A stretch of DNA of 64,000 bases from Bacteroidaceae bacterium (lineage in GTDB: Bacteria; Bacillota_I; Bacilli_A; Erysipelotrichales; Coprobacillaceae): contig CAVESC010000002.1 in NCBI GenBank assembly GCA_963618275.1, positions 531 through 64,530 of the forward strand, given 5' to 3'. The notes under the pieces were generated by a model that did not search any database, was not told the DNA's origin, and saw only the letters and a list, made by a program, of their open reading frames with translations. The position numbers and the translations under genes are program-made. This document shows positions 10,264-23,352 of this stretch, piece after piece (position 1 is the first letter of the stretch; the number at the start of each line of letters is the position of its first letter).

Positions 10264-10466
10264 AAAAAACAGATTCAAAGGGAAGGGAAAAGAATCTATT
10301 TTTAATCTATTATTATCTATTTTTAAAAAGGGAAAATTTATAATTAAGTTTTTAGTTTAAGTAAGTTCTTGTTCCTCCTTTCGTCTATTATCATAAGTTA
10401 GTAATATGAACTTTATTTAACTTTTTCATGTTACTTTCTTGTTTGTTTTGTCAAAAATTATGGGAT
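10264..10466 (-). ncRNA. Dispersed ~200-bp element copy 1: promoter plus putative ~115-nt sRNA (about 10264-10381)
   Basis: Similar to 14007-14205, 17617-17816 and 23153-23352; minus strand -10 GATAAT (10387-10392), C-rich motifs, terminator with C-rich loop; no conserved ORF. Confidence 0.7.
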
Positions 10467-11144
10467 TTACTTTTCTCTTTGCTTCCAGCTAATAAAACCA
10501 TAAATATCAAAAAAGAAAAAGATAACAAAAATAATAGTTACCGATAAATATAAAGGATTTTCTAATGTAGCAAGAGTCCAAAGAGTAATTAATATAAGAT
10601 CATTAGCAGCATAGCCCATAGCGTAATAGGATGATCTTAACATGGTTAATGCAGCTGCCAAATAACTTGTTGTTATTGATATTGTACTAAATATTAAATT
10701 TGGTGTTTTAAGCTTAGCTAAGATGATGTAAAACAAAAATGTAACAAGAATACTGCTCAATAAAAGAACAATAATGTATTGTCCTTTTAATTTTTGTATT
10801 TTAACTTCTTTTCCATTTTCTGAAGGATTTTTCAACCATGTAATGGTTGAAAAAATAGCCATGGGCATTGTCATTCCCAAATAAGTAATCATTTCTCCCC
10901 AATAATGAAATTGTGCAGAAATAATTCCATAAAGAATACTAAATATAATCATTAATACTTGCGACCACACATTTCCTTTAGCTGCCAATATTAATGATGT
11001 CACACCAATACATGAACTAATCAATGTAAGAAAATCAAAATCACCAATAAAAATATTAGTTACAGCAATAATTAAAAGTGAACAAATCCATATTAATTTT
11101 TCTTTTAAAGTTAAATATCTAATTGGATTACTCAATTGATTCAT
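10467..11144 (-). CDS. pnuC: PnuC-family (nicotinamide riboside-like) transporter
   Basis: GVTSLILAAKGNVW, YWGEMITY, YAANDLILITLW and YGFISWK pattern; substrate not certain. Confidence 0.8.
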   Translation of the reverse strand: MNQLSNPIRYLTLKEKLIWICSLLIIAVTNIFIGDFDFLTLISSCIGVTSLILAAKGNVWSQVLMIIFSILYGIISAQFHYWGEMITYLGMTMPMAIFSTITWLKNPSENGKEVKIQKLKGQYIIVLLLSSILVTFLFYIILAKLKTPNLIFSTISITTSYLAAALTMLRSSYYAMGYAANDLILITLWTLATLENPLYLSVTIIFVIFFFFDIYGFISWKQREK

Positions 11145-11165
11145 TCCTTCCTTTTTAAAATAAAA

Positions 11166-11642
11166 CTATTTTTCTTGTATTTCTTTTCCACTAAGATATT
11201 CAATTTCAATTTCAAAAATTTGTACTGCTTTTCCAGCTATTTTAATTTCTTCATCTACCATTTGCTCATTTGGATAATACTTCATCGCAAATTTTTTTAA
11301 TAATGTCATTGTCTTTTCATTTGTTTCCAACAAATGACATCGTCCAAAAACAACAACACTTTGCATATATGGTGCCCAAGATTCTTCTTTGATCATTTCA
11401 TTTCCATAAACTGTAAAACATACTTTATCACAAGCTTTTAAAGCATCCACTTTATGTCCCGCACGTGCTCCATGAAAATAAATTTTTTTGTTATCTTCAT
11501 CATAAAGATAATTAACAGGAATAGCATAAGGATATCCATCATCCCCATTCATTGAAAGAACACCTCGTCGATTTTGTTGTAAAAGGTTCTTTGTACTAGT
11601 TATATCAAGTGCATTTTTCTTTTTTCTTATTGTTCTAAACAT
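11166..11642 (-). CDS. Pyridoxamine 5'-phosphate oxidase-like (NimA-type) flavin-binding protein
   Basis: GYPYAIPVNY, IYFHGARAGHK, SVVVFG. Confidence 0.85.
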   Translation of the reverse strand: MFRTIRKKKNALDITSTKNLLQQNRRGVLSMNGDDGYPYAIPVNYLYDEDNKKIYFHGARAGHKVDALKACDKVCFTVYGNEMIKEESWAPYMQSVVVFGRCHLLETNEKTMTLLKKFAMKYYPNEQMVDEEIKIAGKAVQIFEIEIEYLSGKEIQEK

Positions 11643-11663
11643 GATTTCATTCTCCTTTTTTTC

Positions 11664-11751
11664 AAAAAAATAAGCGTCCTTATTTCTATCTTCTAAGACC
11701 TAACGATAGAAATTTAGACGCTTAACTTTCTTACCCGGTGGCAAGAAAGTA
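11664..11751 (-). promoter_or_regulatory. Structured 5' leader (hairpin plus terminator), putative attenuator
   Basis: Minus strand ACTTTCTTGCCACCGGGTAAGAAAGT hairpin, then TAAGCGTC...GACGCTTA stem with a T7 tract just before the RBS. Confidence 0.55.
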
Positions 11752-11815
11752 TCTTTATTTATTTATTTTTCGATAAATTTATAACATGCAAAACAGGAAT
11801 TGTCTAGCATGATCT

Positions 11816-21451: not shown

Positions 21452-22142
21452 TAAAATAATTCTCCTTTATTTCACAATTTGTTTCTTCTAACTTTTTATA
21501 AACCCAAGATAAATCAAAATGATTTTCATCAATATCCTTCATCATCTTTTCTTCCTTTTGAACAATCAAAAGAGATTTCTTTAAAACATCATCTATTTCT
21601 AAACGAGGAATCACAACAATTCCTTCCTTATTTCCTACAATCAAATCACCTGGATGAATGATTTGTCCACCAACACAAACAGGTACATTAATTTCACCAG
21701 GACCGTTTTTATAAGGTCCATTAGGACAGACACCAGAAGCAAAAACAGGAAACTCTAATTTTTGAATATCTTCAATATCACGAATCGCTCCATCAATCAC
21801 AAATCCACCTAATTTTCTTTTTAAAGCATAGGTTGCCATGATTTCTCCACATAATGCACGATCTAAATAACCTTGTCCGTCAACGACAATCACATCACCA
21901 GGTTGGGCTTGATCAATAGCGTAGTAAAACAATAGATTGTCACCAGCAGGTACTTTTACAGTGTAGGCTTGTCCTAAAACAGATAAACCATTCATTGACT
22001 GAATCTTATGATTTAAACAAAGCATTCGATTGCAGGCATCGCCAATATTTGCGATAGGTACATTTTTAAATTGTTTTATTTTATTTTGAGATAGACGAGG
22101 AAAATCCTTATAAATTTGATAACCAATATTCATATTTTTCAC
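21429..22142 (-). CDS. RraA-family / HMG aldolase-like protein
   Basis: ANIGDA, GDNL, PGDVIVVDG, ALCGEIM, VIDGAIRD, PGDLIVG. Confidence 0.88.
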   Translation of the reverse strand: MKNMNIGYQIYKDFPRLSQNKIKQFKNVPIANIGDACNRMLCLNHKIQSMNGLSVLGQAYTVKVPAGDNLLFYYAIDQAQPGDVIVVDGQGYLDRALCGEIMATYALKRKLGGFVIDGAIRDIEDIQKLEFPVFASGVCPNGPYKNGPGEINVPVCVGGQIIHPGDLIVGNKEGIVVIPRLEIDDVLKKSLLIVQKEEKMMKDIDENHFDLSWVYKKLEETNCEIKENYFNERQSDE

Positions 22143-22227
22143 ACTTTCTATAATCTCTAAGGCCTTTTGATTACACTTTTATTATAGGTAAAATAGATAT
22201 ATTGAAAAGCTGATAATTTAGATATAT

Positions 22228-22248
22228 AATATCTAAAAAATAGATATT
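22228..22248. promoter_or_regulatory. Putative LysR box between rraA-like gene and LysR
   Basis: AATATCTA-AAAAA-TAGATATT perfect dyad. Confidence 0.6.
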
Positions 22249-22260
22249 TAGGAGATAATT

Positions 22261-23154
22261 ATGAAATACGAAGATATCCAAACTTTTTTAGCAGTTGTTG
22301 ATACCGGAAGTATCTTAAAAGCATCTGAGATGTTGTATATTAGTCAAAGTAGTGCTAGTACACGTATTAAACAATTAGAAACAGAATTACAAACGACTTT
22401 ATTTGAAAGACATAAAGGACATCGAAAGATTTCTTTAACACTACAAGGAGAAGAATTCTTACCAATTGCTCAACAATGGTTAGCTTTATTTCAAGATGCT
22501 CTCAATTTAAAAAACATCCCAAACTATAGGATGTTAAAAATTGCTGCTACTGATCTAATCAATAATCATACATTCTTAGGTTTTTATAAATATTTTATGA
22601 TCAACCATCAAGATATTACTTTAAATATTAAAACTCATCATTCTAGTGAAATACATCGTTTAGTAGATAATCAACAATGTGATATTGGCTTTTCTAGTAA
22701 TGTTTATAATTATCCTAATCTACAAACAATGCCTTTATATGAGGAAGAACTTGTTTTACTTTACCATCAAAATCATCCATTCCATGAAAGTAAAAACAAA
22801 AAAGATTTAGATACAAAAGATGAAATATTCCAACAATTCTCTCCTGATTACTTACATTGGCATCAACATTATTTTAATTCATCTACTTATTTAATTAGTG
22901 TAGGAACGGTCTCTATGCAATTATCTTTAATGGAAGAAAAATATTGGGCAATTGTCCCTGAAAGTGCCGCTAATGATTTTATAAAAGAACATCCTGATTA
23001 TTGTATTTATCATTTTTCTAATAAATCATTAAAAAGAACAGTTTACTTACTCACTTATAAGTATCCTCGTCCAGGTGTAAAACTTGCAACAAAAATTTTT
23101 TTAGAAGAAATTAGATCATTTATTGAAGAAAACAAAAGTTTACATTTAATATAA
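22261..23154 (+). CDS. LysR family transcriptional regulator
   Basis: GSILKASEMLYISQSSASTRIKQLETEL. Confidence 0.93.
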   Translation: MKYEDIQTFLAVVDTGSILKASEMLYISQSSASTRIKQLETELQTTLFERHKGHRKISLTLQGEEFLPIAQQWLALFQDALNLKNIPNYRMLKIAATDLINNHTFLGFYKYFMINHQDITLNIKTHHSSEIHRLVDNQQCDIGFSSNVYNYPNLQTMPLYEEELVLLYHQNHPFHESKNKKDLDTKDEIFQQFSPDYLHWHQHYFNSSTYLISVGTVSMQLSLMEEKYWAIVPESAANDFIKEHPDYCIYHFSNKSLKRTVYLLTYKYPRPGVKLATKIFLEEIRSFIEENKSLHLI

Positions 23155-23352
23155 AAAACAGATTCGAAAGGGAGGGGGGAATCTGTTTTTTTAATCTATT
23201 ATTATCTTTTAAAAAGGGAAAATTTATAATTAAGTTCTAAGTTTAAGTAAGTTCTTGTTCCTCCTTTCGTCTATTATCATAAGTTAGTAATATGAACTTT
23301 ATTTAACTTTTTCATGTTTCTTCTTTGGTTGTTTTGTCAAAAATTATGTGAT
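23153..23352 (-). ncRNA. Dispersed element copy 4: promoter plus putative sRNA (about 23153-23267)
   Basis: Same architecture; -10 at 23273-23278; its terminator also abuts the LysR stop, so it may act bidirectionally. Confidence 0.7.

Follow-up and report, generated by a model that had tools for sequence, protein, structure and literature searches.

Four repeats that look like copies of one uncatalogued small-RNA gene bracket imported metabolic genes in a gut bacterium of the Coprobacillaceae

The array between feoB and the MATE gene

The window analysed here, a stretch of 64,000 nucleotides from a Coprobacillaceae genome, carries four co-oriented copies of an element of about 200 bp. A sequence-only reading of this DNA had placed them as dispersed between unrelated genes. 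The copies are real (pairwise identity 78-87%), but all four lie within 13 kb in one array, and the intervals are inserted cassettes:

7867..10197, plus strand: feoAB fusion, conserved left anchor of the array
10264..10466, minus strand: element copy 1 (feoB side); promoter 10383-10466, predicted RNA 10264-10382
10467..14006, minus strand: cassette between copies 1 and 2; glycogen synthase glgA (11816-13774), PNPOx-like gene, pnuC
14007..14205, minus strand: element copy 2; promoter 14122-14205, predicted RNA 14007-14121
14206..17616, no strand assigned: cassette between copies 2 and 3; UbiD, UbiX, LysR regulator, PAC_bac-domain gene
17617..17816, minus strand: element copy 3; promoter 17733-17816, predicted RNA 17617-17732
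17817..23152, no strand assigned: cassette between copies 3 and 4; LysR, RraA-like aldolase, PTS EIIC, GH1, membrane transporter
23153..23352, minus strand: element copy 4 (MATE side); promoter 23269-23352, predicted RNA 23153-23268
23411..24748, plus strand: MATE transporter, conserved right anchor, divergent from the sRNA promoter

The 5' edge of copy 2 provides the final codons and the stop of the upstream 112-aa gene. UbiD and UbiX of the second cassette are VdcC/VdcB-like, with matches under the cut-offs of those families. In the 2.83-Mb genome the four copies were retrieved by nhmmer with E values of 1e-53 to 2e-60; since the next-best match had an E value of 2.2, they are the only copies in this genome. 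In Faecalibacillus the copies likewise form one feoB-MATE array, with one copy in the most distant carrier, G008, and two to four in five congeners. Each of the 85 loci analysed showed a single locus and a single orientation, and no copies were found elsewhere in any genome searched. The covariance model R1 matched in the genus only, apart from one weak match elsewhere. Eight architectures were distinguished among 30 distinct arrays, and copy number equalled the number of bracketed cassettes plus one.

Foreign cassettes bracketed by extra copies carry glgA, the UbiX/UbiD decarboxylase, PTS-GH1 (in this array only, among the 30) or NERD-HRDC. Insertions without a duplicate copy also occur, namely the pnuC pair (here pnuC with the PNPOx-like gene between copies 1 and 2), genes 21/22, an ISL3 pair and a second NERD gene. 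Sequence comparison marks the cargo as foreign: the glgA gene is 92-93% identical in another genus, versus 90% in G008 and 73-74% in three congeners, and two of nine genomes of the genus have UbiD, whose identity in other genera is 91-93%. The glgA DNA in common with the other genus stops at the element edges. The element does not flank the cargo in the putative donor genera, so that the first capture is not explicable by recombination between copies. NERD-HRDC homologues in other genera lack a neighbouring element. A glgA-element-glgA joint was also seen (run X4, L205 and L222); circularisation, tandem duplication or misassembly could account for it.

Promoter, predicted RNA and related small-RNA candidates

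Three promoter features and a terminator recur on the minus strand, given here for copy 4 with the other copies in brackets:

23335..23352 (17799-17816, 14188-14205, 10449-10466), minus strand: box A, ATC(A/C)CATAATTTTTGACA, 5' edge of the repeat
23291..23307 (17755-17771, 14144-14160, 10405-10421), minus strand: box B, GTTAAA-N5-TTCATA, a degenerate TTCAYA-N5-TTCAYA repeat
23276..23281 (17740-17745, 14129-14134, 10390-10395), minus strand: -10 hexamer TATGAT, 9 nt after box B
23153..23190, minus strand: intrinsic terminator with C-rich loop, overlapping the stop codon of the convergent LysR gene

The TTGACA of box A lies 44 bp upstream of box B, in 11-bp phase, and the first half of box B is the degenerate one. 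The spacing from box B to the -10 is identical in family-wide relatives, and the box A motif also precedes another C-rich sRNA candidate in other genera. No regulon emerged from a position weight matrix built on the element alone. The upstream box, TATGATAAT, GAAAGGA[GGA]ACAA, TTCCCTTTT and the terminator with its C-rich loop are all present as first described. Neither terminal inverted repeats nor a flush target duplication longer than 3 nt was seen in 77 unique copies, and no ORF of at least 5 codons was common to all 74 distinct copies; the commonest short ORF (57 of 74) starts at the TTG of the upstream box, ahead of the -10. Two candidates judged by eye against consensus sequences were dropped: a dif-like site, which had no inverted second arm, and a Fur box, of which there was a half-site only.

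Each copy reads as a minus-strand sRNA gene, with a predicted RNA of about 115 nt and an anti-AUG/anti-SD core. The U-G stem pair of copy 1 was seen as described. The strand is fixed by the terminators, since 37 of the 74 distinct copies contain G-U pairs that can form only in a minus-strand RNA; in one variant, pairing is better on the plus strand. CAU or UAU precedes UUCC in 65 of the 74 cores (CAU in 9, UAU in 56). The predicted RNA has a single core motif, its terminator loop carries two C runs, and the first-loop motif is absent; the UCCC part of the core is predicted to pair with the RNA 5' end, and the anti-SD/anti-AUG motif itself is present. Minus-strand folding gave z values of 0.20, -3.38, -1.92 and -1.36 for the four window copies, not significant in each alone, and no compensatory change was seen in the element's own 5' stem. 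When the core was matched to start regions, 29-62% paired at -9 kcal/mol or better against 7-16% of mid-gene windows, a difference affected by the choice of start regions for their SD likeness, and no single target stood out. A pattern scan with the terminator alone was unspecific (119 stretches, unrelated taxa). Four expression runs were looked at, all as contigs; those of the one RNA run, X2, gave no cover over the copies of G004, which is neutral evidence as contigs cannot reveal small RNAs. Rfam includes an LhrC model; no family reached its gathering score in the window, LhrC was absent among the weak matches, and a search at looser E values gave chance matches only.

Elsewhere, the genome has four more C-rich sRNA candidates whose boxes are related to these. 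The arrangement TTCAYA-N5-TTCAYA-N9-(-10) followed by CCCTCTCCC was found in 43 of 81 family genomes and not once in the control, and this type of sRNA candidate is probably under a CssR-like regulator. The stem of this family-wide relative covaries at five of nine pairs (15 cells; 0 of 500 shuffles), a count that was not blind as the helix register was chosen after viewing the slid control. A model from other genera ranked the single copy of G008 top in 84 kb (E 4e-4, a rough value); its scores for the window copies did not rise above background (E 1.4, where the best control match had 0.46; also E 0.05-0.17). That the element might be the orthologue of the tdk-linked RNA of other genera was rejected: this genome has its own tdk-linked copy, so that the element is a separate type.

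A CssR-annotated regulator, encoded at G000:C53:16952-17614, occurs in 77 of 81 family genomes, near-universally, so that its presence does not discriminate; its own promoter bears a conserved TCACA repeat. The canonical CssR box is TTTTCACA (PMC6749698). Candidate TTCAYA and TCACA half-sites are present here together with the CssR-annotated core regulator, and no box of this kind was seen immediately before htrA. Our literature search found no sRNA study of this gut bacterial group.

Origin of the array and competing explanations

The mosaic structure of the copies bears directly on how the array arose. Among 62 copies, columns 4-48 track the upstream flank, columns 112-149 mostly the downstream flank, and terminator columns 162-196 both. 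In the three informative cases only, the switch intervals lay at about 99-111, 55-78 and 30-65, without a common core; three of four NERD triplets had no clean switch. The varied crossover places of these mosaic copies point to homologous recombination, rather than to an att core, a MITE or an integron. The four copies, proposed earlier as sibling sRNAs forming a regulon, are instead direct repeats of one gene at one locus, with halves exchanged by recombination. The minus-strand sRNA gene of about 115 nt, anti-SD and outside Rfam, is supported on sequence grounds, as is its place in a wider set of C-rich sRNA candidates whose promoter boxes are related, in the genome and family; its copies are not independent regulon members.

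Taken together, these features make it probable that the element is a complete sRNA gene under OmpR-type control, in a direct-repeat array that captures foreign cassettes and is reshuffled by recombination. Control would lie with a response regulator of the OmpR family, most likely the core CssR-like protein, whose binding to TTCAYA-type half-sites replacing the -35 would turn on the RNA. The (C/U)AU-AAAUUUCCCUUU core and the C-rich terminator loop could then block translation by pairing with Shine-Dalgarno and start-codon regions, in the manner of LhrC and the csRNAs. Comparison of the arrays shows that an ancestral lone gene between feoB and MATE gave rise to the direct-repeat array. Foreign transcription units would have been joined flush to the gene edges with a duplicate of the gene, probably by illegitimate recombination; cassettes would then be gained, lost and reshuffled through crossovers inside the 200-bp copies, seen as mosaics and presumably RecA dependent. 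Each copy would also supply a terminator to the neighbouring cassette. As each extra copy brackets imported metabolic genes, the sRNA gene appears to double as an entry point for new DNA.

Alternatively, a site-specific recombinase could act in trans on the element as its att site, just as phage integrases use tRNA genes, the cassettes being defective islands with their own gene copy. The sharp 5' edge, cargo stop codons 0-16 nt away in four cassettes, nine tyrosine-recombinase domains in the genome, glgA-element-glgA junctions (L205, L222, run X4) that could be excised circles, and a phage reported in csRNA2 (PMC4863584) would fit such a site. We nevertheless consider it unlikely, as the switch points vary among events, none of the eight architectures showed a recognisable integrase-sized ORF of that kind, and searches of viral contigs, phages and plasmids gave nothing that matched the element; in other genera, a solitary sRNA candidate also has the edge motif as its promoter box. 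No linked tyrosine recombinase was found among the window genes at 4.5-30.6 kb, nor recognised in the part of the array ORFs that was scanned. The sRNA gene might also be real and the array an ordinary tandem duplication, as in LhrC1-4, with DNA landing in a neutral gap and the bracketing incidental. Cargo-free tandem duplicates of relatives do exist in G062, G035 and G094, and insertions beside the gene occur without duplication; this account becomes improbable as none of the 30 complete arrays has adjacent cargo-free copies, copy number follows the bracketed cassettes, and copy halves move with their cassettes.

It is highly improbable that no trans-acting RNA is made, the element being a cis promoter-terminator insulator or its RNA an antitoxin, a protein sponge or a short-peptide message. 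An SD-like GGAGG does stand at the RNA 5' end and the terminator serves flanking genes in both directions, but the copies have no ORF in common, no toxin-like partner ORF was seen opposite, and a conserved C-rich anti-RBS core is found again in solitary relatives whose stems covary. A MITE or other non-autonomous mobile repeat would suit the size of about 200 bp and the strain-variable copy number; with one locus and one orientation throughout the 85 loci, no copies elsewhere in the genomes searched, and neither terminal inverted repeat nor target duplication, this reading is already contradicted and hardly credible.

Relation to known systems

Integron cassette arrays, pdif modules and IS26 translocatable units are accessory modules separated by direct repeats and gained or lost as units. 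The repeat described here differs from these in being a 200-bp promoter-RNA-terminator gene, with no recombinase or transposase of its own and with crossovers that are not fixed. A broader proposal, which we hold as possible but doubtful, is that stress-regulated sRNA genes are recombinase-free gene-capture platforms, serving as attachment site, cassette insulator/terminator and dosage counter (each module adds a regulator copy). They would thus form a general, overlooked transfer route that includes streptococcal csRNAs, and CssR would control a hitherto unknown regulon of at least five sRNA types in the Coprobacillaceae. For a common human-gut genus, the analysis predicts an anti-SD sRNA regulon of several members, together with a defined promoter box and a candidate regulator. 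The genes carried by the array, for glycogen synthase, an aromatic-acid decarboxylase and a sugar PTS, are relevant to metabolism in the gut.

The analogy with LhrC and the csRNAs drawn at the outset is borne out as far as sequence evidence goes. Listeria LhrC1-5 are multicopy RNAs of 111-114 nt, close to the length predicted here, with CU-rich motifs in a single-stranded stretch and in the terminator loop and with two-component control, predicted in our case; their regulator is LisR and the candidate regulator here is CssR-like, and the consulted part of the source does not mention cargo between LhrC copies (PMC4132741). Other UCCC-motif sRNAs of low-GC Gram-positives, RsaE, RNAIII and FsrA, also have a C-rich anti-SD motif, but the element has no sequence or model match to them and they are not described as cassette brackets in that same part (PMC4132741).

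The closest parallel is with the csRNAs, whose hosts belong to a different order of Bacillota. A csRNA is recognised by a CiaR box NTTAAG-N5-TTTAAG 10 bp upstream of the -10 (PMC4863584), whereas the promoter here reads GTTAAA-N5-TTCATA-N9-TATGAT, that is, a TTCAYA-N5-TTCAYA type of repeat instead of TTTAAG-N5-TTTAAG. The recognition helix of CiaR, VVEVY(V/I)SK(V/I)RKKL (PMC3091779), was read by eye in none of 12 intact OmpR-family regulators, a broken one on C17 being left out; without CiaR, csRNA membership fails. The predicted length of about 115 nt does fall within the csRNA range (51-200 nt, ending in an intrinsic terminator). Both systems also have a response-regulator direct repeat just 5' of the -10 (putative here), an anti-SD and anti-AUG core, several siblings per genome and small metabolic islands between duplicated sRNA genes. 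Such islands were described between duplicated csRNA2, csRNA4 and csRNA6 genes in S. oralis and S. infantis (PMC3091779, PMC4863584, PMC8186281), and their publication makes the present system less new than proposed (PMC4863584). The csRNA accounts, in the parts available, deal with single islands, whereas here a single site holds a stack of up to three cassettes and mosaic copies were followed across strains. What was a side remark on streptococci thus becomes a testable system with stacked cassettes, known flanks, mosaic copies and strain-level polymorphism.

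Element copies and their predicted anatomy

The sequence-only reading had placed four minus-strand copies of a ~200-bp element at 10264-10466, 14007-14205, 17617-17816 and 23153-23352, and all four were confirmed at these positions. Their pairwise identity is 78-87%, and a profile built from the four detected these and nothing else in the genome (E at most 1e-53; next match E 2.2), all inside 13 kb. Judged by the database names given to neighbouring proteins in close relatives, the organism belongs to Faecalibacillus. The absence of a conserved ORF also held across a set of 74 distinct copies, drawn from both genomes and metagenomes, none of whose ORFs is shared by every copy, and the proposed Rfam check returned no family at gathering score in the window, with chance matches only around copy 4. 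Each copy reads as follows.

Features of each element copy
Box A, 5' edge, minus strand: ATC[A/C]CATAATTTTTGACA
Box B, downstream of box A, minus strand: GTTAAA-N5-TTCATA
-10, nine bases after TTCATA, minus strand: TATGAT
Predicted RNA, ~115 nt long, following TATGAT, minus strand, with the terminator at its end

From TTGACA down to TTCATA the distance is 44 bp, which keeps the two in phase. G-U pairs, which are mismatched on the opposite strand, were found in 37 of the 74 distinct terminators, and the minus strand folded better in 66 (many by 0.1 kcal/mol only), the plus strand in 5, while 3 were not parsed. In 65 of the 74 copies, CAU or UAU is present a few bases ahead of UUCC, a spacing corresponding to an anti-start-codon plus an anti-SD motif in the putative transcript. 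No compensatory change was seen in the 5' stem, which is a weak one. In metagenomic loci L210 and L211, the first copy is internally duplicated (model 1-109, then 95-203), much as in the lengthened csRNA5 of PMC8186281.

A single locus with mosaic copies

BLAST and a covariance model detected the element in five of the eight other genomes of the genus, each time between feoB and the MATE gene, with a single copy in G008 (identity about 63%), two in G004 and G007, and three in G003 and G005. Neither method found it in G001, G002 and G006, where the closest MATE matches are just 42-44% identical. A metagenome scan gave at least 157 stretches. Among the loci analysed, namely 79 (L160-L238, several on one contig), the window and five genomes, none carried copies on both strands. 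Where both anchors (feoB and MATE) were visible, 30 distinct arrays fell into 8 architectures: E-NERD-E-glgA-E in 12, where E is the element and NERD a NERD-HRDC cassette, E-glgA-E in 9, E-glgA-E plus two genes in 4, and five singletons, the window among them. Copy number equals the number of bracketed cassettes plus one; some genes nevertheless entered without a duplicate. Loci L202 and L216 have different upstream genes and L221 and L229 have unrelated DNA joined nearby; these may be chimeric contigs. The end of feoB (window 10193-10269) bears repeated TTGTAACA/TGTTACAA palindromes, and inside this stretch G007 carries an inserted module of two genes, one for an HTH protein and one for a 249-aa protein (no PADLOC match).

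Flanks were analysed for 62 of the 77 unique copies, those with flanks in common classes. Variable alignment columns 4-48 go with the flank upstream (conditional information reaching 0.22 bits vs at most 0.11), columns 112-149 mostly the downstream flank (up to 0.20 vs at most 0.04) and the terminator columns both; these figures and the switch points are descriptions, not statistics, related strains not being independent. In G003, the copy that separates MATE from UbiD agrees with window copy 4 as far as column 99 or so and with copy 3 beyond roughly column 111; a single crossover that brought in or removed the PTS-GH1 cassette would leave this pattern. Further informative cases had switch intervals of 55-78 and 30-65; three triplets were uninformative. 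Because the switch points differ between cases, the copies argue for exchange by homologous recombination. A glgA-element-glgA junction, present in L205 and L222 and on a contig from sequencing run X4, may be a circle, a duplication or a misassembly.

Imported cargo and its proposed first capture

Of the 81 family genomes, 21 have the catalytic part of glgA. Its identity is 92-93% in five genomes that belong to another genus (apparently Catenibacterium, from protein names at 93% identity), compared with 90% for G008 and 73-74% for three congeners; core regulator identity in that other genus is 76-77% only. UbiD occurs in 13 of 81 family genomes (2 of 9 within the genus), and five genomes from other genera carry it at 91-93% identity. 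The DNA shared with the other genera begins, for glgA, just past one element and continues up to the border of the following one; for UbiD, it extends close to the upstream copy. No element was found beside the cargo in the genera sharing glgA or UbiD. In four cassettes the cargo stop codons lie 0-16 nt from box A, and for one cargo gene box A supplies the last codons. First capture would thus need an illegitimate join. The genome has a ComEC-family gene and nine tyrosine-recombinase domains, all away from the array.

Several other features were observed in the window and in a locus of another genus.

13322-13774, minus: glgA N-terminal extension, ~165 aa, repetitive, Lys/Thr/Ala-rich, of differing length between strains (632-679 aa proteins)
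11655-11790, minus: leader-like double hairpin and U tract ahead of PNPOx-like and pnuC genes, possibly an attenuator or riboswitch; no Rfam match
59059-60056: 112/114-aa gene as a direct repeat (DNA 79-92% identical) around a 104-aa gene; no PADLOC match
3810-4536, minus: gene pair (128 aa and 135 aa) similar to a HEPN/nucleotidyltransferase toxin-antitoxin module, the second matching PADLOC PDC-S09 (E 1e-24)
L505 (G020:C2:43945-45579, another genus): end of a glgA homologue (75%) adjoining a convergent boxed C-rich sRNA candidate

Related candidates, a possible regulator and comparison with known sRNAs

Of the 81 family genomes, 43 (from 18 of 33 genera) contain TTCAYA-N5-TTCAYA-N9-(-10) followed by CCCTCTCCC, against none for the reversed control, and the stem of this RNA type, to which L373 belongs, covaries among 18 aligned sequences. 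The exact box A occurs in 22 of 81 family genomes, mostly ahead of an RNA with UCCC loops. A looser pattern was present in 29 of 80 family genomes vs 2 of 120 others. This genome (G000) has four solitary sRNA candidates, at C141:3760, C26:28520, C1:35785 and C102:713.

G000:C141:3760-3890, plus: L373, C-rich, perfect TTCATA-N5-TTCATA box, preceding pyrG's own promoter; no Rfam match
G000:C26:28520-28690, plus: L374, preceded by box A and flanked by an RpiR/MurR-like gene and by mscL (both named by reading the translation)
G000:C1:35785-35892, plus: TTCAYA-type box, CCCC/UCCC core
G000:C102:592-760, minus: TTCAYA-type box, CCCC/UCCC core

Tandem pairs were seen for the L373 type in G062 and G035 and for the L374 type in G094. 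In other genera, box A stands ahead of an RNA that bears three UCCC loops, at a distance of about 10 kb to the CssR-like system. One of the C1 and C102 candidates is tdk-linked, and in several genera (L492-L504) the genes that come after it vary. In genus g28, a 101-106-aa gene of unassigned function that follows tdk is bracketed by two different boxed C-rich sRNA candidates (L493 5449-6070; L494 5453-6070; L496 5428-6040). A model from other genera ranked the G008 copy first in 84 kb and the window copies at background level only, so common ancestry is plausible, not proven.

The best candidate for the regulator would be the core protein annotated CssR, whose own gene is preceded by a conserved TCACA repeat; the B. 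subtilis CssR box is given as TTTTCACA in PMC6749698. Upstream of the CssR-like gene (L431-L460), 29 of the 30 promoters have, next after the TCACA repeat, the strongly conserved palindrome ATATTGCCAT-N4-ATGGCAATAT, which would be a second operator or a hairpin.

Searches on Faecalibacillus small RNAs or Coprobacillaceae sRNAs found no on-topic study. The streptococcal CiaR-dependent csRNAs combine a regulator repeat upstream of the -10 with cores of the anti-SD and anti-AUG kind (PMC3091779), and islands of two and four genes sit between duplicated csRNA genes in S. oralis and S. infantis (PMC4863584, PMC8186281). Listeria LhrC, an RNA of 111-114 nt encoded in several copies, carries CU-rich motifs (PMC4132741). 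By its predicted features, the element would work like these csRNAs and LhrC; however, it falls outside the csRNAs themselves because its promoter has no CiaR box and none of the 12 intact OmpR-family regulators of the genome the CiaR helix. Comparison between strains shows the array and its mosaic copies; transcription, regulator, targets and the capture of cargo are predictions. The element is most likely an uncatalogued csRNA/LhrC-like gene, duplicates of which bracket imported cassettes.
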